A program made the translations under genes and the position numbers. Positions 7,027 to 46,774 of a stretch of 64,000 bases of DNA are shown here, in pieces. Location of the stretch: the NCBI GenBank assembly GCA_031421835.1, contig JANOPL010000038.1:1972-65971 (forward strand). The letters run 5' to 3'. Source of the stretch: Hyphomicrobiales bacterium (lineage in GTDB: Bacteria; Pseudomonadota; Alphaproteobacteria; Rhizobiales; Aestuariivirgaceae). The notes under the pieces were generated by a model. It was not told the DNA's origin. It worked only from the letters and a program-made list of their open reading frames with translations, and made no database searches. How positions within the stretch are numbered: the stretch's first letter is position 1; each line of letters starts with the position of its first letter.

Positions 7027-7476
7027 TTAGTCTTCTGCAATATCCTCGGCCCAAAGCTCTGGTTTTTCCTTGATGAAGCGCGTCATCAGGGCAATGCATT
7101 CCGGGTCGTTGGCCACAATCACTTCCACACCACGAGACCGCAGAAAATCTTCGTTGCCGCCAAATGTCGTGTTCTCGCCGATAACAACACGGGGGATGCT
7201 GAATTGTATGATCGTGCCCGTGCACATCATGCAAGGACTCAGCGACGTATAAAGTGTTGTGTCGCGATAGGTTTTCTGGCGTCCCGCTTTACGAAGTGCG
7301 TCCATCTCACCATGTGCAATCGGATCACCACCTTGAACCCGTTGATTGCGGCCTTTTGAAACCAATTGCTCGCCACGCGCCAACACTGATCCGATGGGGC
7401 AACCGCCTTCATCGAAACCCGCTTTCGCCTCATCATAGGCTTCACGTAAAAAACGCTTGTCGGTGGCGGTGAGCAT
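7027..7476 (-). CDS. Zn-dependent nucleoside/cytosine deaminase (yeast FCY1-like fold)
   Basis: HGE and SPCMMC zinc-binding motifs. Confidence 0.85.
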   Translation of the reverse strand: MLTATDKRFLREAYDEAKAGFDEGGCPIGSVLARGEQLVSKGRNQRVQGGDPIAHGEMDALRKAGRQKTYRDTTLYTSLSPCMMCTGTIIQFSIPRVVIGENTTFGGNEDFLRSRGVEVIVANDPECIALMTRFIKEKPELWAEDIAED

Positions 7477-7523
7477 ATTTCAACTCCAGTAGAAGTGTCT
7501 AAAAACCCAGCATTGTCAGACGA

Positions 7524-9227
7524 CTAATCGAGGATTGCATTTGCCACAATAGATGCCCCTCGGATTGTGGCTTGTGCGGCGGCCAGCGCTGTTGGCAATT
7601 CGACTACGATGTAGTGTCGCGCATCAGTTTCGGCTTCAGATTGCAGCTCGCCGCCTCGTGCAAACTCTGAGGCTTTTGCCAAGTAAGCTGCAGCAATGAA
7701 TGCAGCGAGGGCGCGCGTATAAAACGTTGCAGCGGAAAGTGCGTTTGCATTGTCGAGTTGCTTGAGCTGCATCGTCAATGATTGCATCTCGGCAGTCAGA
7801 CGAGCGGCGACACTGTCCCCCGCAATCATGGCCAGCGATGGTTGGCAAGCCAAAAGCATTTCTGCGAGCGCATGACCATTATCCAAGTTCAGCTTCCGGG
7901 TGACGAGGTCAATGGCTTGAATACCGTTGGTTCCCTCATAGATCGGCAAGATGCGCGCATCGCGGTAATATTGAGCGACCCCGGTTTCTTCAACAAAGCC
8001 CATGCCGCCATGCACCTGAATGGCTGTTGAAGTGACTTCAACGGCAATGTCCGTGGCATAGGATTTCGCCAGAGGTGTAAGCAAAGATGCGCAAGACATC
8101 GCCTTCCTTCTTCCCTCCTCATCTTCGGCGCGGGAACTGGCGTCGATCGCGTTGGCAGTCGCCATGCACAGCATCCGGGCGGCGGCGGTTTTGGCCCGCA
8201 TCTCAATCAACATGCGTTTGACATCAGGGTGATGGATGATTGGGCTTGATCCTTCACTTCCTGGAAGACGCCCTTGTTTTCGTTCGGCAGCAAACAAAAA
8301 TGCCGCCTGCATTGCCCGTGATGCAAGAGCCACGCCCTGTACCGCCACAAGCGCGCGGGCATTGTTCATCATTGTGAACATGCAATTCAGACCGCGGTTT
8401 TCTTCGCCAACCAACCAGCCTTGGGCACCGCCATTGTCGCCATAGACCATGGTGCAGGTGGGTGAGGCGTGGATGCCCATTTTGTGTTCAAGCGAATGAC
8501 AGCGAAGATCATTTCGGGTTCCATCGGGCAAAAACTTCGGAACCAAAAATAACGAAATGCCTTTGGTGCCTGCCGGAGCATCCTCCAGTCGCGCCAGAAC
8601 CAGATGCACAATGTTTGACGTCAGTTCGTGGTCACCATAGGTAATGTAAATTTTGTTACCCGTGATGAAGTAGCTGCCGTCTTCAGAGCGCCTTGCCTTG
8701 CAGCGGAGATGTGACAGATCAGAGCCCGATTGAGGTTCTGTCAGGTTCATGGTGCCTGACCACTCTCCAGAAACCAGCTTGGGCAGATACCTCTGTTTCA
8801 ATTCTTCTGTGGCATGAGCAGAGATGGCTTCGATGGCGCCCGTCGTCAACAATGGACAAAGGGCAAATGACAAACACGCCGCATTCCAAATCTCAGTGCA
8901 GGCCGCTGATAGCACAAACGGCAAGCCTTGGCCGTCAAAGCGCAGCGGCCCCGTCAGGCTGTTCCAGCCGCCGGCGCACCAGTCCACATAAGTCTCACGC
9001 CAACCCGGCGGTGTGATGACTTTATCTTCAACAAGTCTTGCTGGAGCTTGATCACCTATCCAATTCAGTGGTGCCATACGCTCGGCAGCAAACCTGCCCG
9101 CTTCATCCAGAATGACTTGCGCATCAGAGGGGGACAGATCGCTGTAAATACTTTCGCCAAGATTACCTGCCGTTTGCATGGCAAGAAGAATGCGAGAAAC
9201 AGGGGGTTTGTAAGTCATCGAAATCAC
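7524..9227 (-). CDS. dmdC: Acyl-CoA dehydrogenase, DmdC-like (3-methylmercaptopropionyl-CoA dehydrogenase)
   Basis: GTMNLTEPQSGSDL, KMGIHASPT, QVHGGMGF and IYEGTNGIQA motifs; GTGA overlap with the upstream crotonase. The dmdC name relies on operon context. Confidence 0.75.
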   Translation of the reverse strand: MISMTYKPPVSRILLAMQTAGNLGESIYSDLSPSDAQVILDEAGRFAAERMAPLNWIGDQAPARLVEDKVITPPGWRETYVDWCAGGWNSLTGPLRFDGQGLPFVLSAACTEIWNAACLSFALCPLLTTGAIEAISAHATEELKQRYLPKLVSGEWSGTMNLTEPQSGSDLSHLRCKARRSEDGSYFITGNKIYITYGDHELTSNIVHLVLARLEDAPAGTKGISLFLVPKFLPDGTRNDLRCHSLEHKMGIHASPTCTMVYGDNGGAQGWLVGEENRGLNCMFTMMNNARALVAVQGVALASRAMQAAFLFAAERKQGRLPGSEGSSPIIHHPDVKRMLIEMRAKTAAARMLCMATANAIDASSRAEDEEGRRKAMSCASLLTPLAKSYATDIAVEVTSTAIQVHGGMGFVEETGVAQYYRDARILPIYEGTNGIQAIDLVTRKLNLDNGHALAEMLLACQPSLAMIAGDSVAARLTAEMQSLTMQLKQLDNANALSAATFYTRALAAFIAAAYLAKASEFARGGELQSEAETDARHYIVVELPTALAAAQATIRGASIVANAILD

Positions 9228-22147: not shown

Positions 22148-22325
22148 TTCGTGTAGTCCTCCCAAGTGGTTGTCGAGGGCTTTTGCCCACGACCAGAGAA
22201 TAAGTCACAATTTTACGCCGCGAGAGTCAAGCGGAATTCGTTGCTGCAATGCACAACTTGTATTCAGAAAACACATATAAACTATTGTTTTTAAACAATT
22301 AAAGTCATATTTGGGCAAACGCTCA

Positions 22326-24635: not shown

Positions 24636-24696
24636 GTTTGACCTGTGACGCTATCATCGCTTGACGAAGCTGCGGCTGCAAGGTTCAATTTGTCCC

Positions 24697-25470
24697 ATGA
24701 CAATTGCGATCCGATCCGCCGATTCATTCACAGCCCATGCCGTGTGCATGGCGGCGGGCGTGCGTGACAGTTTGCGGACTGCGCAGTTTTATATCCGCGA
24801 CCTCTCCCATGCCGACGGACAGGCTACCCAAGCCGCGACCTTTTTATCACGTTTCGTCGGGCGCAGTGCCAGGCTGATTGATGCCATGCTGTCGAAAGCT
24901 GCGGATATTTCCGTCCGTCTTTTGGTGCCGCAATGGCGGGATTTACCTTCACCCTTTGCACCGGGCATGCGCGGCGAAGTGCTGGAAGCAATCCGGCAGA
25001 ACCGTTTGGTGTTGACCTCTGCCTTCACTGTTTACTTTTTCCGCGCGGCCAAACACATTTTGCAGAATGGGACAGAAGGTCCGTTTCTGGTACTCGAGCA
25101 CCGGATCGATGCCGCTCGCCGCGTGATGGCTGAAACGCCGTCGCAGGATGGTGAAGAGCCGACCACAGTGCTGGCACGGGCCATGATGCATTTGGTTGCA
25201 TCTGACCCGATTGCGCGGGCGGGCCGCCCAAAAGCCCAGTTCGGATTTCTGGCAAGTGCAGACAAAAACTTGGGCGTAATAGCGGCAGCTTGTGTTGCTT
25301 TGCTGATTGCCGAAGACGGAAAGCCCATTGAATCGCTTAATGAAAACGAGTTTTTCGCGATTGCAGGTGCCCTGCTGGCACCTCGCTTGCCCGATATGCA
25401 ACAGGCCGTCGAAAACCGGGATGTCGCAGGCTTGGCCAAGGCCTTAAAATCAGTGGGTGAACTCTACTGA
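24697..25470 (+). CDS. Hypothetical protein
   Basis: Long ORF filling the gap before E1 alpha; ATG 24697 preferred over TTG 24661; no family recognised. Confidence 0.65.
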   Translation: MTIAIRSADSFTAHAVCMAAGVRDSLRTAQFYIRDLSHADGQATQAATFLSRFVGRSARLIDAMLSKAADISVRLLVPQWRDLPSPFAPGMRGEVLEAIRQNRLVLTSAFTVYFFRAAKHILQNGTEGPFLVLEHRIDAARRVMAETPSQDGEEPTTVLARAMMHLVASDPIARAGRPKAQFGFLASADKNLGVIAAACVALLIAEDGKPIESLNENEFFAIAGALLAPRLPDMQQAVENRDVAGLAKALKSVGELY

Positions 25471-25557: not shown

Positions 25558-26595
25558 TTGATGTCTGCTGCCCCTGTAACAAAATCCTCCAAAAAGGGCA
25601 GCAACGCCCGACCGTTTTATTCCAAACACACGAAGGAACAGTTGCGACAGGCGCTGAAACGCATGTGGCTGATCCGCCGTTTTGAAGAAATGGCAGAAGA
25701 CTCGTATATTCGCGGCCTGACCCATGGCACCATGCATTTATCGATCGGGCAGGAAGCATCCGCTGTGGGGATCTGCATGGATTTGACCGACAAGGACTAC
25801 ATCACTTCCACCCATCGCGGGCACGGCCACTGCATTGGCAAAGGTGCTGAAGTCAAATACATGTTCGCCGAATTTTTCGGCAAGGAAGAGGGTTATTGCC
25901 GGGGTCGGGGAGGCTCAATGCACATTGCTGACGTCGCCACTGGAAATTTGGGCGCCAACGGTATCGTTGGCGGTGGCTTGCCATTGGCGACGGGCGCTGC
26001 ACTCGCCATCAAGCAGCGCAAGGGCAAGGATGTTGCGGTGTGTTTCTTTGGCGATGGTGCCAACAATGAAGGTGCATTTCACGAATCCCTGAATATTGCC
26101 GCCGTCTGGAAACTGCCGGTGATTTATGTGTGTGAAAACAATCAATATGGCATGTCGGTTTCAACCGAACGCTCAACGGCTGTGAAGGATGTTGCCACCC
26201 GTGCGATTGCCTACAACATGCCAGGCGTGGTGGTTGATGGGAACAACATCGCTGAGGTCAATGAGGCTATGATGGTGGCGATGGAACGGGCGCAACGGGG
26301 CGAAGGCCCATCACTGATCGAATGTAAAACCTATCGCACACGCGGGCATTCACGCTCTGACCGCAACAAGTACCGCACCAAGGAAGAGATTGAGGAATGG
26401 AAGCTCAAAGACCCCATTCCAATGTTTGAGACGGAATTGCAGGGCCATGGTGTGCTCAATGAAGAAGAAGTGCAGGCCGTGCGCGATGAAGTTGAAAAGG
26501 ACGTGGCCGACGGCTTTGCTTTTGCGCAGGCCGGAACCGATCCTACGTTGGACTCGGTTTTGCGTGACGTTTACACTGTTGGAGGCGCGGCATGA
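25558..26595 (+). CDS. TPP-dependent dehydrogenase E1 alpha (acetoin/pyruvate dehydrogenase family)
   Basis: [20 protein letters not shown]-x-NEG...ENNQY TPP motif, RGHSRSD. Confidence 0.92.
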
Positions 26596-42415: not shown

Positions 42416-42844
42416 ATGACAGATTCAAAAACAAAAACGATCTCGCCGATTGCTCTTTCACCAGAAGTAAAAACCAGTTTCACTGAACTAGGTAAAACGT
42501 TCGGGGAGTTATCCAAGACATTGAGCGGAGCTTTTGCAGGGCTGAATCAGCCCACCAGCTTGCTCCGCCCATCTGAAGGAATAACAATGGGGGGGCCTTT
42601 AATACCGAAGCCAACAACAAAACCAACAAACATTGCAACTATAACAAACCCAAATCAACTCGGTGAATTAATCAGATCATCGCGCAAATCAAAAAAGCTG
42701 ACCCAACAAAAGCTCGCCGACCTTGCTGGTGTAGGTCGCCGTTTCATTGTAGAATGTGAAGCGGGGAAGCCTCGTTTGGAATTTGCTAAAGTGCTGCAAG
42801 TGACCGCCGCAACAGGTATTGATATTCTTGCGATCAAACGATGA
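42416..42844 (+). CDS. hipB: HipB-like XRE/HTH antitoxin with a long N-terminal extension
   Basis: LGELIRSSRKSKKLTQQKLADLAGVGRRFIVECEAGKP HTH; ATGA overlap with hipA. Confidence 0.82.
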   Translation: MTDSKTKTISPIALSPEVKTSFTELGKTFGELSKTLSGAFAGLNQPTSLLRPSEGITMGGPLIPKPTTKPTNIATITNPNQLGELIRSSRKSKKLTQQKLADLAGVGRRFIVECEAGKPRLEFAKVLQVTAATGIDILAIKR

Positions 42845-44193
42845 CTGCACTTACACTTGATGTGCGGCTGGATGGATATGCGGCACCTATTGGCAAGCTC
42901 GTGCGCGCTGAATCGGGCAATGTCGGATTCACCTACAGCAAAAAACACTTGGCAATCGCAAACGCCTTACCGTTGTCGCTATCTTTCCCATTGAAGGACG
43001 AACCTTACGGTGATGTGACAACGCGTTCCTTCTTTTCCAACCTGTTACAGGAGCGCGACCAGCCACTGCGAGAGGTCATGGAAAAATATGGAATCGAATC
43101 TGCTGATTTCGTTGGATTACTTTTTTACATGGGTGCCGATTGTGCTGGTGCGGTTTCCATTTTGCCCGAGGGAGCGCCACCGACGAAAGTCCCTGGGAAT
43201 CTCGAAACAGACTATGACGTATTGTCATCTGAAAACCTCGAATTAATCGTCCGGGCACTTCATGACCGCCGTCCCTTGCCCAACGATTTACGCGATCCTT
43301 CGCCGCTGGCCGGTGTTCAGAGCAAGTTATCCATTTTGCTTTTGGCGAATGAACAGTTTGCACTCCCTAAACCTGGAACAGGCGCACCGACAACCCATGT
43401 CATGAAAGTACCTGATCGTGATCACAAAGCGGATTCACAGCGTGAAAGTCTGTCTCTGCAGCTTTCAGACCAATGCGGCATCACCACTGTCCCGTCGGCT
43501 CAACTGGATGTCGCAGATATTCCTGTTCTCCTTACCACTCGTTTTGACCGCGGACGCAATGCCCTTGGGCAGATTATTCGACTCCACCAAGAAGATTTTG
43601 CCCAAGCGCTCTCACTTCCACCCAGCCTCAAATATGAAAGGCGTGGAATTGAAGGACGCAGCTTCAATGCCCGCGCAATTGGCGGGTTGCTGAATGAGAC
43701 TGCAAACCCGGACATTGGACGTAATACAATTTTGAAACTGACGCTGTTCGATATGTTGGTGGGCAACGTAGACGGCCACGCAAAAAATCATGCTTTGCTC
43801 TACGGGCAAGGCACACGGCCCAATCTGTCGCCACGGTATGATATTCTTCCAACAAGACTGGATGATAGTTTCACCGAGGAGATGTCCTATTCTGTAGGAA
43901 CAGCCAAAGTTCTGGATGAAGTTGATCAGTCACAGTTTTCAAAGTTCTTGAGCGATATTGGAATTCCCCGACCCGCTGCACAAAAGCGCTTGGTCACATC
44001 TGCGTTGGACCAAATTGTGACTGTACTTACTAAGCAGTTAGACGGGTTGAACCGCATCAACCAAAAATCGTACGCCGACCTCATCGCAGCAAACATGCGG
44101 CAACTTTTGCCCAAACTTGGCTACCCCGTTCCTAAAGAAGCACAAGAGCGCGATGCCCATGTCGTGCGCGGCGGTGGTTGGTTGACCAGTTGA
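42841..44193 (+). CDS. hipA: HipA-family Ser/Thr kinase toxin
   Basis: LSLSFP N-terminal domain, SPLAGVQSK loop, HQEDFAQAL, GNVDGHAKN and LSPRYDI motifs. Confidence 0.92.
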   Translation: MTALTLDVRLDGYAAPIGKLVRAESGNVGFTYSKKHLAIANALPLSLSFPLKDEPYGDVTTRSFFSNLLQERDQPLREVMEKYGIESADFVGLLFYMGADCAGAVSILPEGAPPTKVPGNLETDYDVLSSENLELIVRALHDRRPLPNDLRDPSPLAGVQSKLSILLLANEQFALPKPGTGAPTTHVMKVPDRDHKADSQRESLSLQLSDQCGITTVPSAQLDVADIPVLLTTRFDRGRNALGQIIRLHQEDFAQALSLPPSLKYERRGIEGRSFNARAIGGLLNETANPDIGRNTILKLTLFDMLVGNVDGHAKNHALLYGQGTRPNLSPRYDILPTRLDDSFTEEMSYSVGTAKVLDEVDQSQFSKFLSDIGIPRPAAQKRLVTSALDQIVTVLTKQLDGLNRINQKSYADLIAANMRQLLPKLGYPVPKEAQERDAHVVRGGGWLTS

Positions 44194-44224: not shown

Positions 44225-44851
44225 ATGCAAGATTACATCACATCGGCACTTGCCACGTTGCTTGTCATCGTTGACCCGATTTTCCTCAGCGCCATGTTTC
44301 TGGGTCTCACCAATGATCTCAACAAGGAACAGCGCAGAGAGGTTGCCTTGCGCGGATCAGTCATTGCCTTCTGCATTTTGTTGGGTGCCGGGCTGGGTGG
44401 TGCGAAACTACTTTCCCTCCTCGGTATTTCACTCTCCGCGTTCCGCATCGCCGGAGGGCTGCTTTTGCTTTCCGCTGCCGCCGAGATGGTGTTTGACCGC
44501 CGCAGCCAGCGTCAGCAGGACACGGTCACCAAAGCTATCAGCATTGATCATGTAAAAAACATTGCAGCCTTTCCATTGGCCATACCTCTGATGGCCGGGC
44601 CCGGCGCTATCACCGCAATGATCCTTTTGGCTGGTCGCGCTGAGGGCGATTGGAGCAAGCTCACGGCACTTTATGTGGTGACTGCGGTCGTCATGCTGTC
44701 GTGTTTTCTCTGTTTTTTGGCGGCCGACCGTATTTCCAAAACAATGGGCATTACCGGCAGGGCCGTGATCTCGCGATTGCTGGGAATTATCCTGGCAGCG
44801 CTGGCTGTTCAATTCATTATCGACGGCATTCAGGTTCTGCTGAGGCAGTGA
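44225..44851 (+). CDS. marC: MarC family membrane protein
   Basis: SAFRIAGGLLL, FPLAIPLMAGPGAIT and RLLGIILAALAVQF motifs. Confidence 0.9.
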   Translation: MQDYITSALATLLVIVDPIFLSAMFLGLTNDLNKEQRREVALRGSVIAFCILLGAGLGGAKLLSLLGISLSAFRIAGGLLLLSAAAEMVFDRRSQRQQDTVTKAISIDHVKNIAAFPLAIPLMAGPGAITAMILLAGRAEGDWSKLTALYVVTAVVMLSCFLCFLAADRISKTMGITGRAVISRLLGIILAALAVQFIIDGIQVLLRQ

Positions 44852-44861
44852 TGTTCACGTA

Positions 44862-45170
44862 TCATTGAGGCGCTCCGATGCTTTGACCGAGCTTGGAAAG
44901 GCCCGGCAACAACCGCGAACCTGCAAAACCCAACAGCAATGCGAAAGCCACGCCCAATCCCCAAATGCCGATCACAAGCCATTCGGCTGCATCTGTTCCG
45001 AACATCGTGAGCCAGGACAGCCACTCCACCGCTTCAGGACTTGGGGTGAGGACGTCCACATTGCGATTGGCCACAGAGCCACCCCAGCCTATCAGGCTGT
45101 GCAGAAACCAAGCCAATCCACTCCAAACAACCAGTCCAATGCCGATAACGCCCCACAACACTTTCTTCAT
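44862..45170 (-). CDS. Small hypothetical membrane protein
   Basis: MKKVLWG start with a GGGAG RBS; two hydrophobic segments. Confidence 0.7.
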   Translation of the reverse strand: MKKVLWGVIGIGLVVWSGLAWFLHSLIGWGGSVANRNVDVLTPSPEAVEWLSWLTMFGTDAAEWLVIGIWGLGVAFALLLGFAGSRLLPGLSKLGQSIGAPQ

Positions 45171-45308
45171 ACCCAAAACTCCCAAAGCATGCCGTTCTAA
45201 TACTTGATATGGTGGGCGGCCTTGCAAGCGCAATCCATTGTTGGCGCTGTGTCGCATTAAATCTCTGCAAGCTCAAAGTGATCAACGCAGCTTATCGCCA
45301 AGCGTTAC

Positions 45309-45350
45309 AAAAAAGGGGGATGAAGTGGAGGCCCGCTCCACTTCATCCCC
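45309..45350 (-). terminator. Strong intrinsic terminator
   Basis: Perfect 15-bp stem GGGGATGAAGTGGAG/CTCCACTTCATCCCC followed by CTTTTTT on the minus strand. Confidence 0.85.
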
Positions 45351-45423
45351 AAGTTCAGCCTTTGAGGGCCGATCGCGAAACAAACTGCTTCAGAAATGGG
45401 AGGATCCAAACAGGAATGCGATG
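45309..45423 (-). ncRNA. Candidate ~115-nt small RNA
   Basis: Bounded by a sigma54-like promoter and an intrinsic terminator; no ATG before the terminator hairpin; contains the anti-SD-like UCCUCCC. Confidence 0.45.
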
Positions 45424-45433
45424 TTTACTGGTT

Positions 45434-45449
45434 CGCAAGCTGCGTGCCA
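45434..45449 (-). promoter_or_regulatory. Sigma54 (-24/-12) promoter-like site
   Basis: TGGCACGCAGCTTGCG on the minus strand matches TGGCAC-N5-TTGC. Confidence 0.6.
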
Positions 45450-45586
45450 GTTTTGGTGCGCGGCACAAAAATCTCTTATATTATTGAATATAAAGCACTA
45501 AAATGCATTTGGACTGTTTTGCCGGATCGGCGCCAGAAAAGCCAAAGCTGCAACTTTGTGCAACGCAATATCTAAAAAGGCAGCAC

Positions 45587-46774
45587 TTAAATGATGCGCC
45601 CAATTTTTAACCAGTTGGTAAAACGATCGATGCCTTCGCGCAGGGTGTCTTCATTCTTCAAGTAACACATGCGCAGGAAGCCTTCACCGCCCGGTCCAAA
45701 GGTGCCACCAGGGGCAAAACCCACACCCGCCTCATCGATGATGCGCAAGCATGTCGCGAGTGAATCGGTCATGCCATCGATTGAGAAGAACAAATAGAAC
45801 GCGCCATCTGGCACCTGGAAACGCAAGCGATCATTCTGACGGAAAGAGTTTACAACGATATCGCGGTTTTTGCGCGCCGTCGCCACTTGGGCGTCGACAA
45901 AGGCATCGCCGTTTTCAACAGCATAGGCGCAGCCTTTTTGCAGGAATACTGGCGAGCCCGAAGTGTTGTATTGGATAAAGCGTTCGGCAACCGGTGCAAG
46001 TTCCAGCGGATATTGCATCCAGCCCTGCCGCCAACCCGTCATCGCCCAGTTTTTCGAGAAGGTGTTGCAAAGGATCAAGCGTTCATCAAGGTCGCACACG
46101 TCAAGGAATGAAGGTGCACGATTGACGCCCGCCTTGCCGAAATGAAACCGGCTGTAAACTTCATCTGCCAAAATCCAGATGCCGGATTTGCGCGCAAAGT
46201 CCCTGATCGCAATCAAGTCTTCCCGTGTTGCGGTCCAACCCAAGGGATTTGATGGCGAGTTGATGCAGATGGCTTTGGTGTGCAGTGTCAACGCCGCAAA
46301 CAAGCGGTCCAAATCCAGGGACCATGTGCCATTGGCAAACAGCATTGGCACTTCCACCGGCTTTGTTCCTTGCATGCGCAGGGGACCTGCGTAATTGGGC
46401 CAGGCGGGCGTGGGAATGATGACTTCATCACCATCAGCTGCAATCATTTGAATGGCGTTTTGGATGGCCTGCATGCCGCCGCCGGTGATGCCGAAATTGT
46501 CGATATGCAAATTCACGCCGTAATGTTTTGCGTGATAGCGCACAAGCGCCTCGCGCAATTCCGGAATGCCGCGCTGCCACGTATAAAATGTTTCGCCTGC
46601 GAGCAAGCTGTCAATCGCAGGACGGCAAAAGGCCTCAGGTGTTGGCAAATTTCCTTGCCCGGACCAGAACGCCATCACGTCAGGTTTGGCCATCCCATAC
46701 ATCGCCGCTGTAACAATGCCACTGTCAGGTTCAGTTTGTGCGGGTTGTGTGAGGCGGGAAATGAGGTCTTGCAT
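45587..46774 (-). CDS. Class I/II PLP-dependent aminotransferase (aspartate aminotransferase-like)
   Basis: NSPSNPLG, ADEVY and FSKNWAMTGWRQG motifs. Confidence 0.9.
   Translation of the reverse strand: MQDLISRLTQPAQTEPDSGIVTAAMYGMAKPDVMAFWSGQGNLPTPEAFCRPAIDSLLAGETFYTWQRGIPELREALVRYHAKHYGVNLHIDNFGITGGGMQAIQNAIQMIAADGDEVIIPTPAWPNYAGPLRMQGTKPVEVPMLFANGTWSLDLDRLFAALTLHTKAICINSPSNPLGWTATREDLIAIRDFARKSGIWILADEVYSRFHFGKAGVNRAPSFLDVCDLDERLILCNTFSKNWAMTGWRQGWMQYPLELAPVAERFIQYNTSGSPVFLQKGCAYAVENGDAFVDAQVATARKNRDIVVNSFRQNDRLRFQVPDGAFYLFFSIDGMTDSLATCLRIIDEAGVGFAPGGTFGPGGEGFLRMCYLKNEDTLREGIDRFTNWLKIGRII

Follow-up and report, generated by a model that had tools for sequence, protein, structure and literature searches.

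A conserved small RNA gene family with a predicted sigma-54-dependent promoter in the genus Aestuariivirga

Organization and conservation of the locus

The 64,000-nucleotide stretch analysed here (the window; contig C38 of a 3.29-Mb Hyphomicrobiales assembly that comprises 185 contigs with 53.7% G+C) contains, on its minus strand between an open reading frame (ORF) of 103 codons and the gene of a pyridoxal phosphate (PLP) aminotransferase, a gene for a candidate small RNA (sRNA) at positions 45309-45423. Comparison with related genomes of the genus Aestuariivirga confirmed that the feature is real and conserved, and identified it as an independent gene for a predicted small RNA with its own putative promoter. 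The elements listed below are present and are conserved as a unit, the fold of the RNA covaries, its seed is exposed, and the proteins needed are encoded in the genome.

45556-45585, minus strand: conserved distal box TGCTGCCTTTTTAGATATTGCGTTGCACAA, directly 3' of the aminotransferase stop codon, from a footprint alignment of 40 loci
45556-45568, minus strand: PhaR/AniA-type operator TTGCGTTGCACAA, core YGCRNYGCR with AT-rich arms
45546-45562, minus strand: NtrC-type enhancer 17-mer TGCACAAAGTTGCAGCT, GC at positions 2-3 and 15-16
45476-45486, minus strand: IHF-like core CAATAATATAA, between enhancer and promoter
45456-45468, minus strand: proximal dyad TTGTGCCGCGCAC of the form TGC-N3-GCA, with its end 7 nt upstream of the -24 element
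45434-45450, minus strand: predicted sigma-54 promoter CTGGCACGcagcTTGCg, GG at 45448-45447, GC at 45436-45435
45309-45423, minus strand: small RNA of 115 nt, from the predicted +1 (45423/45422) to the end of the T-run
45372-45422, minus strand: stem-loop 1, closing helix AUCGC (45422-45418)/GCGAU (45376-45372), enclosing the seed hairpin
45393-45407, minus strand: seed GGAUCCUCCCAUUUC in the stem-loop 1 apical loop, including UCCUCCC (45404-45398)
45355-45372, minus strand: stem-loop 2, UCGGCC/GGCUGA
45309-45350, minus strand: intrinsic terminator, stems 45350-45336 and 45330-45316, 5-nt loop, then C and T6 (45314-45309)
46774-45587, minus strand: PLP aminotransferase, stop codon 45589-45587
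beyond the aminotransferase gene: mscL (minus strand), then a hybrid histidine kinase gene (plus strand)
45171-44862, minus strand: 103-codon predicted membrane ORF without an NCBIfam match, between the sRNA terminator and marC
44225-44851, plus strand: marC-type NAAT transporter

The minus-strand letters of the locus are ...AAAACTGGCACGCAGCTTGCGAACCAGTAAACATCGCATTCCTGTTTGGATCCTCCCATTTC...GGGGATGAAGTGGAGCGGGCCTCCACTTCATCCCCCTTTTTT. A preliminary description of this locus had proposed a -24/-12 site on the minus strand and a terminator about 115 nt downstream of the transcription start; the site (CTGGCACGCAGCTTGCG, 45450-45434) lies where it was placed, the body measures 115 nt, and the perfect 15-bp stem with its T6 run is present, the stem having been recovered by a terminator scan as well. 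Conservation was assessed in 156 Aestuariivirga genomes, nearly all of them metagenome-assembled genomes (MAGs), and in 128 other genera of the order. The pattern TGGCAY-N6-TGC-N(18-45)-ATCCTCCCATTT, in which the promoter is followed after 27-30 nt by the seed, occurs in exactly one copy in 40 of the 156 genomes and its reversed version, used as control, in none, so the arrangement lies far beyond chance. Among 185,579 species genomes there are 58 matches to the pattern, about 40 of which belong to Aestuariivirga or to 'Hyphomicrobiales' MAGs, and the remaining scattered matches roughly equal the ~15 expected by chance according to a hand estimate. BLAST comparison with relatives delimited a promoter-to-terminator stretch with 85-86% identity and a separate conserved box just past the aminotransferase stop codon.

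The members of the family fall into three sequence classes. The covariance model R1, built from class I only, scores the RNA of the window at 108.5 bits and adds class III members (seed GGGUCCUCCCAUUC), and the union of pattern and R1 matches covers at least 66 of the 156 genomes. No R1 match was obtained in the 128 other genera of the order, with a class I-only model and strict Infernal filters that could miss remote relatives. The Rfam/Infernal check suggested in the preliminary description likewise returned no family match at the locus: no Rfam family reached its gathering score in the 64-kb window, and only chance-level matches appeared locally at E <= 10. As far as these searches reach, the family is new, is confined to the genus Aestuariivirga, and is without an Rfam entry.

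Two explanations would dispense with a separate trans-acting RNA. The element follows the aminotransferase gene at a distance of 240-280 nt and shares its strand, as would be expected if the hairpin served only as terminator or 3' untranslated region for that gene's mRNA and the match to a -24/-12 site had arisen by chance, the very outcome against which the preliminary description had set its sRNA. However, the module retains promoter, body, and terminator next to a non-aminotransferase upstream gene in loci L002, L015, L026, L027, and L031, the body covaries well upstream of the terminator, the GG and GC of the promoter are kept in every distinct locus, and a terminator scan detected a weak terminator-like hairpin at 45564-45547, that is, already after the aminotransferase stop codon; we consider this explanation highly improbable. 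The unit is independent in other respects too: the distal box accompanies the sRNA even beside different upstream genes, the downstream gene in relatives is a convergent marC, and class III members often occur as tandem pairs in which every copy has its own predicted sigma-54 promoter. Such sibling pairs lie about 170 nt apart in loci L126, L127, L129, L131, L132, and L133 (genomes G131, G067, G178, G105, G146, and G002, respectively).

The second explanation assigns the element to the 103-codon ORF (45171-44862), as a cis-acting leader or attenuator or as a small-protein gene that serves it. A same-strand ORF does begin 138 nt past the terminator, and a TTG-initiated frame of 33 codons runs through the body. 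Yet the 103-codon ORF has no family and is missing in relatives, where the convergent marC comes next, and the terminator is very strong. The small-protein variant is contradicted by the lengths of the RNA, which range from 106 to 148 nt among members and differ by non-multiples of three, and by the absence of a Shine-Dalgarno (SD) sequence before any of the frames. The body contains no ATG, as the preliminary description had noted in stating that no start codon precedes the hairpin, and the TTG-initiated frame, the sole one, is unconserved. Given these length differences and the lack of any conserved frame, the RNA is considered non-coding. This second explanation has a very small probability.

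Several observations concern decay and insertion around the locus. In locus L006 (genome G035), the distal box and the -24/-12 element are retained and the RNA body is deleted, and in locus L003/L121 (genome G029), stem-loop 2 and the terminator are retained and the promoter and the CCUCCC seed are lost (UAUCCC). The 103-codon ORF (44862-45171, minus strand), missing at that place in relatives, looks like a lineage-specific insertion. Just past marC, a pair of genes on the plus strand (42416-44193) encodes a HipB-like antitoxin of the Y4mF family and a kinase with a HipA N-terminal domain.

RNA structure, seed, and candidate targets

The predicted folding energy of the 115-nt RNA is -47 kcal/mol (z = -4.4 versus shuffled sequences), and per-sequence folds agree with RNAalifold on three stem-loops, namely stem-loop 1, whose apical loop contains the anti-SD motif, stem-loop 2, and the terminator. 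Covariation was evaluated in 35 sequences aligned to R1, with 500 shuffles and slid-partner controls. In this alignment 96.8% of the cells are paired and 18 of 22 pairs are compensatory, values of which none was reached in any of the 500 shuffles; as a reservation that weighs against the result, the alignment was fitted to the model, which biases these counts toward the structure. When the partners are slid, pairing falls to 47-61%. Helices 1-3 show exchanges among AU, GC, and CG pairs, including a change from A-U to G-C in the seed hairpin that divides the sequences 16:16; all four pairs of helix 4 (stem-loop 2) are compensatory, as are 6 of the 8 scored pairs of helix 5 (terminator).

The anti-SD-like UCCUCCC that had been noticed in the body (45404-45398) proved to be invariant and, by prediction, single-stranded. 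The seed motif does not vary in classes I and II and takes the form GGGUCCUCCCAUUC in class III, and the mean probability of UCCUCCCA being unpaired is 0.93 across 52 distinct RNAs versus 0.40 for the whole RNA. With its stand-alone unit, its covarying structure, and its conserved and accessible seed, the RNA thus has the attributes of a putative base-pairing sRNA. Hfq is encoded in the genome, and the U-tail of the strong terminator together with the layout of three stem-loops would suit binding by this chaperone.

For the target prediction with this seed, which the preliminary description had also called for, a duplex-energy scan with the 28-nt seed region was tried and discarded, since it ranked intragenic sites first; it was replaced by a genome scan anchored at SD sequences. 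The latter scan produced 28 sites, and all eight long candidates that were checked are solute-binding proteins of ATP-binding cassette (ABC) or tripartite ATP-independent periplasmic (TRAP) transporters, with the domains SBP_bac_1, Peripla_BP_4, Peripla_BP_6, and DctP, so that binding-protein mRNAs are the candidate targets. Anti-SD sRNAs of Alphaproteobacteria usually act on targets of this class. It counts against this assignment that the prediction rests on a common SD variant. In the proposed mechanism, the invariant loop GGAUCCUCCCAUUU would pair with SD regions of the GGGAGGA(U) type and block translation, mainly that of mRNAs for the periplasmic binding proteins of ABC and TRAP transport systems.

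One SBP_bac_1 gene in the window itself (start at 22165, minus strand) carries the SD sequence GGGAGGAC, which is a predicted target of the seed as well; the intergenic region upstream of this gene contains a PhaR-type operator, GTTGCTGCAATGCACAACTTG, at 22240-22256 (plus strand).

Predicted sigma-54 promoter, enhancer, and PhaR-type operators

All 60 distinct loci keep the GG of the -24 element, the GC of the -12 element, and the spacing between them, and substitutions are limited to positions at which the promoter tolerates them (TGGCAT; A/C/G-TGC). The 11 nt between the -12 element and +1 are variable, and conservation resumes with CATCGC at the predicted +1 (45423/45422), 12 nt past the GC of the -12 element, in agreement with the start near 45423 proposed in the preliminary description. 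A local scan found no sigma-70-like promoter near the sRNA. The genome encodes RpoN (676 bits, above the cut-off), NtrC, Hfq, and both IHF alpha and IHF beta, which together with the invariant GG/GC supports the earlier reading of the element as a sigma-54-dependent sRNA gene. The same description held that an AT-rich tract upstream would suit IHF. This stands for the family, in which an IHF-like core CAAnnnnTTR (footprint columns cAa....tta) occurs in 39 of the 60 loci versus ~6 expected, and stands less well for the window, where the core, CAATAATATAA, is imperfect. The correctly spaced GG/GC, the presence of RpoN and of an enhancer-binding protein (EBP) with an intact contact loop, and an upstream site with an IHF core jointly mark the element as a putative sigma-54 promoter.

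The exact sequence TGGCAC-N5-TTGC occurs twice in the 64 kb. The other occurrence, at 25376-25390 (plus strand), falls within the final 100 nt of the ORF 24661-25470, about 170 nt ahead of the ORF that starts at 25558, and may be an internal sigma-54 promoter or a chance match. A genome-wide scan for generic sigma-54 promoters was rejected as a guide to the regulon, because 155 of its 180 matches fell inside long ORFs and were mostly intragenic noise.

The conserved box extends from 96 to 135 nt upstream of the -24 T, within the distance of about 80-150 bp looked for in an activator site of a sigma-54 promoter, and includes a 17-bp dyad. Its 30-nt consensus is TGCTGC(C/T)TTTTTrGATnnTGCnnTGCACAA, and a position weight matrix of the whole 38-nt box detects one site in its own genome, the box itself, the informative signal residing in the two halves. 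The enhancer 17-mer TGCACAAAGTTGCAGCT begins 113 nt upstream of the -24 T, where it overlaps the PhaR-type operator. We scanned the genome for sigma-54-like promoters with a 17-mer (T/C)GCACAA-N7-GC placed 40-190 nt upstream, and the top four combinations belong to the sRNA (-113), urtA (-120), an nrtA-like gene (-110), and glnB (-98); the product of urtA is UrtA (555 bits), and the nrtA-like gene encodes a binding protein of the NrtA/SsuA family. Genes of the glnB, urtA, and nrtA types are classical members of the NtrC regulon in Rhizobiales (PMC5343134). The 17-mer is found at -113 +/- 2 in most sRNA loci, and 30 of the 50 loci that hold TGCACAA have GC at positions 15-16, versus ~7% expected from an estimate based on base composition. 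In tandem pairs, copy 1 has a plain 17-mer, TGCCGAAG-N5-GGGCA, without the PhaR-type dyad, and copy 2 has both. A search of the literature found no explicit NtrC motif for Hyphomicrobiales.

The genome encodes only three EBPs. NtrC (673 bits, above the cut-off) has an intact GSFTGA loop, and NtrX is without the sigma-54 contact loop. The third is an orphan response regulator of 489 aa (contig C178, positions 7043-8509, minus strand) with a receiver domain, an AAA+ domain with GSFTGA, and a Fis-type helix-turn-helix domain, for which no NCBIfam equivalog scored above its cut-off. Because the 17-mer and its distance from the promoter match those at the glnB, urtA, and nrtA-like promoters, NtrC is favoured as the activator, as the preliminary description had guessed, and within the model we lean, by a narrow preference, toward an NtrC-activated promoter.

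Some points weigh against the overall model: the right half of the 17-mer is weak in the window (GCT, not GCA); only about 60% of the loci keep the right-half GC; the PhaR-type dyad occupies the same place as the left half, and the two sites are therefore not cleanly separable; and every one of the 156 genomes has the orphan EBP, with an identity of 77-90%. The first and the last of these suggest that the same sigma-54-dependent sRNA might be activated by the orphan EBP rather than by NtrC, this protein being the sole other sigma-54-competent EBP in the genome and the right half being weak in many loci. Since it is present in all 156 genomes, the presence or absence of EBPs cannot be matched informatively with the profile of the sRNA. 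What speaks for NtrC instead is that both the enhancer motif and its distance fit its classical targets named above. In addition, the heptamer TTGTGCA was reportedly found by Ceizel Borella in 2018 to be needed for the NtrC-dependent induction of mmgR, an sRNA gene of S. meliloti. We regard activation by the orphan EBP as rather unlikely. A perfect sigma-54 consensus, TGGCACGCAATTTGCT, was observed at position 10723 of contig C93 (minus strand) without an NtrC-type 17-mer, and this site may belong to the orphan EBP.

Neither the operators of the PhaR type nor the relation to MmgR formed part of the preliminary description. In S. meliloti, the PhaR consensus verified by electrophoretic mobility shift assay is YGCRNYGCR with AT arms, as exemplified by the sites of phaZ (GTTTGTTGCGCTGCACAAGAA), exoL (TTTTGTTGCAGTGCACAAAGA), and mmgR (CAATTGTGCACCGCAGCATTA) (PMC12542648). 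The right half of the distal box, TTGCGTTGCACAA, fits this consensus, and the strict motif occurs at the distal position in 48 of the 60 loci against a genome background of 0.055 per kb. In the genome of the window, TGCnnTGCACAA occurs 24 times versus ~6 expected, and its sites adjoin a gene of the polyhydroxybutyrate (PHB) depolymerase type and several binding-protein genes. PhaR itself is encoded (157 bits, above the cut-off), with dyads of the TTGCAATGC type upstream of phaR. The proximal dyad TTGTGCCGCGCAC, at -40 to -28, is kept in the subgroup of the window (loci L019, L023, L056, L064, and L094) and lines up with the PhaR site found in the mmgR promoter, TTGTGCACCGCA; in class II the equivalent dyad (TTGCGTAGCACAA) is imperfect and located at +1, and in class III it (TTGCAATGCACAA) overlaps the -12 element. 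Both dyads of the window are thus candidate operators near a promoter, as in a PhaR regulon.

Here too some observations are adverse. TGCAC is common to the dyad and the NtrC half-site, and the composite recurs at the nrtA-like promoter as TTGCACTGCACAA-N7-GC, which could represent one extended NtrC site without PhaR. Moreover, the left third of the box, which consists of TGCTGCC and T5 or, in class III, reads TTGCCGAAA, shows the same degree of conservation as the dyad, and TGCTGCC-T5 fits neither the PhaR consensus nor the spacing of the 17-mer. Owing to the shared TGCAC and the nrtA-like composite, it is a live alternative that the supposed PhaR operators belong to an NtrC site that is extended or tandem and that the promoter senses nitrogen status only, and copy 1 of the tandem pairs, with its plain 17-mer and no dyad, would agree with it. 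Against this alternative, the dyad fits the verified PhaR consensus base for base with the AT arms included, it recurs at -40, +1, or -12, positions that make no sense for an activator, and the excess of genomic occurrences includes the PHB-depolymerase-like gene and the region upstream of phaR. We judge an extended NtrC site to be unlikely, though clearly less so than activation by the orphan EBP.

Two further interpretations of the box were rejected. As a plus-strand sigma-70 promoter similar to that of mmgR, it has neither a conserved -35 element nor a conserved downstream product; and TGCTGCC-T5 as the terminator of the aminotransferase gene has weak, unconserved stem partners, and the box stays beside other upstream genes.

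Thus, we propose the following sequence of events. RNA polymerase with sigma-54 would bind the -24/-12 element, phosphorylated NtrC, as the most likely EBP, would bind the 17-bp dyad ~130 nt upstream of +1, and a bend induced by IHF would bring the EBP to the promoter, so that nitrogen limitation would switch on synthesis of the RNA. The PHB-sensing repressor PhaR may gate the promoter, whose output would then mirror the carbon/nitrogen (C/N) balance, as has been described for mmgR in S. meliloti. Taken as a whole, the locus is probably a gene for a trans-acting sRNA of ~115 nt that is sigma-54-driven and NtrC-activated, for which gating by PhaR is suggested and binding-protein mRNAs are the predicted targets; most likely, the sRNA would silence nutrient-uptake mRNAs when nitrogen is short. 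It is from sequence and comparison that we infer its expression, its dependence on sigma-54, NtrC, and PhaR, its use of Hfq, and its targets, and to that extent the interpretation given in the preliminary description is supported in silico in every part open to such a test.

More tentatively, the promoter could be a two-input C/N gate, at which PhaR competes with NtrC at the enhancer (45568-45546) and occludes the -24/-12 element, with the RNA serving as a second, sigma-54-wired counterpart of MmgR. A gate of this kind would be undescribed so far for sigma-54; we offer it as a possibility, to which we give less than an even chance. If it were true, proximal operators would have been re-created at three positions (-40, -12, and +1) in three classes, and both anti-SD sRNAs would jointly set the expression of transporters and storage polymer by the C/N ratio.

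Comparison with known small RNAs

The predicted logic, in which nitrogen limitation acts through phosphorylated NtrC and sigma-54 on a base-pairing sRNA, is that of NrsZ in Pseudomonas aeruginosa and NfiS in P. stutzeri, both of which are NtrC/sigma-54-dependent sRNAs under nitrogen limitation. The Aestuariivirga sRNA differs from them in showing no similarity of sequence or structure (no Rfam match), in belonging to another bacterial class with other seeds and targets, and in its PhaR-type operators, which NrsZ and NfiS are not known to have. Other sRNA genes in which a sigma-54 promoter is served by an enhancer further upstream, in many cases together with an IHF site, are those of Qrr1-5 of Vibrio (mentioned in PMC12559287), GlmY/GlmZ, and CrcZ, activated by LuxO, GlrR, and CbrB, respectively. 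Sibling copies occur among them, as they do in the tandem pairs of class III; however, the sequences, activators, and signals of all these systems are unrelated to those described here, and GlmY and CrcZ act via protein sequestration rather than via an anti-SD seed.

To our knowledge, few sigma-54-dependent sRNAs have been characterized, and none experimentally in Alphaproteobacteria. In S. meliloti, sigma-54 promoters of sRNAs are known as motif predictions only (PMC7143759). The present family provides a compact example, in which a predicted enhancer and an IHF site precede a -24/-12 promoter and the RNA of 115 nt displays its anti-SD motif in an invariant loop. It is found in dozens of Aestuariivirga genomes from freshwater and glacier streams, in all of which the sRNA is unannotated because it is missing from Rfam. 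Its presence would place control of nutrient-uptake proteins at the post-transcriptional level inside the predicted NtrC regulon, and would tie this control to carbon storage as well if the PhaR operators are real.

With regard to seed and targets, the sRNA resembles AbcR1/2 (alpha-r15) and NfeR1 (alpha-r14), alphaproteobacterial 'cuckoo' sRNAs with CCUCCUCCC, which are described as having loop-borne anti-SD motifs and targeting mainly binding proteins of ABC transporters (PMC7143759, PMC8844928). An anti-SD in a hairpin loop and binding-protein mRNAs as predicted targets are shared with AbcR and NfeR1. In contrast, the Aestuariivirga sRNA has a single anti-SD loop where these have two or three, it has no sequence in common with them and does not match the alpha-r14 and alpha-r15 Rfam models, and its promoter is of the sigma-54 type, whereas those of AbcR and NfeR1 are of the sigma-70 or RpoH types and under the control of LsrB and others.

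The nearest analogue is MmgR/alpha-r8 (RF00519 'suhB'), which includes MmgR of S. meliloti and SisA-D of Caulobacter. MmgR is an Hfq-type sRNA with a CCUCCC anti-SD in the first of three stem-loops and a Rho-independent terminator (PMC7143759), and its gene is induced by NtrC and repressed by AniA/PhaR, with a TGC-N3-GCA dyad that overlaps TTGTGCA (PMC7143759, PMC12542648). The locus described here likewise has an overlapping composite of a PhaR dyad and an NtrC heptamer upstream of an sRNA, and the RNA shares with MmgR the anti-SD motif, the Rho-independent terminator, and a junction RACUUGGG before the terminator. The alpha-r8 family is defined by the 10-mer UUUCCUCCCU, which is single-stranded and follows a weak hairpin (PMC12559287); in the Aestuariivirga sRNA, the corresponding motif GAUCCUCCCA matches it at 7 of 10 positions and occupies the apical loop of the first stem-loop, toward the 5' end. 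Also unlike MmgR, with its ~77 nt and -35/-10 promoter, the sRNA has 106-148 nt and a sigma-54 promoter with a distant enhancer. RF00519, with a gathering threshold of 41 bits, gave no match to the sRNA even at E <= 10 (searched region 45150-45650). Owing to this lack of a match, the partial 10-mer in another context, and the different type of promoter, the sRNA is placed outside the alpha-r8 family. The same genome has a canonical mmgR in addition (contig C113, 4330-4407; locus L134, 431-508, plus strand), which scores 63.3 bits with RF00519 and carries UUUCCUCCCU and a terminator; about 200 nt upstream of it are a PhaR-like TGCTGCATTGCAACAA and a perfect palindrome, ATGCAAATTTTGCAT. Thus, the family from Aestuariivirga is new, yet the kind of regulator that it represents is already known.

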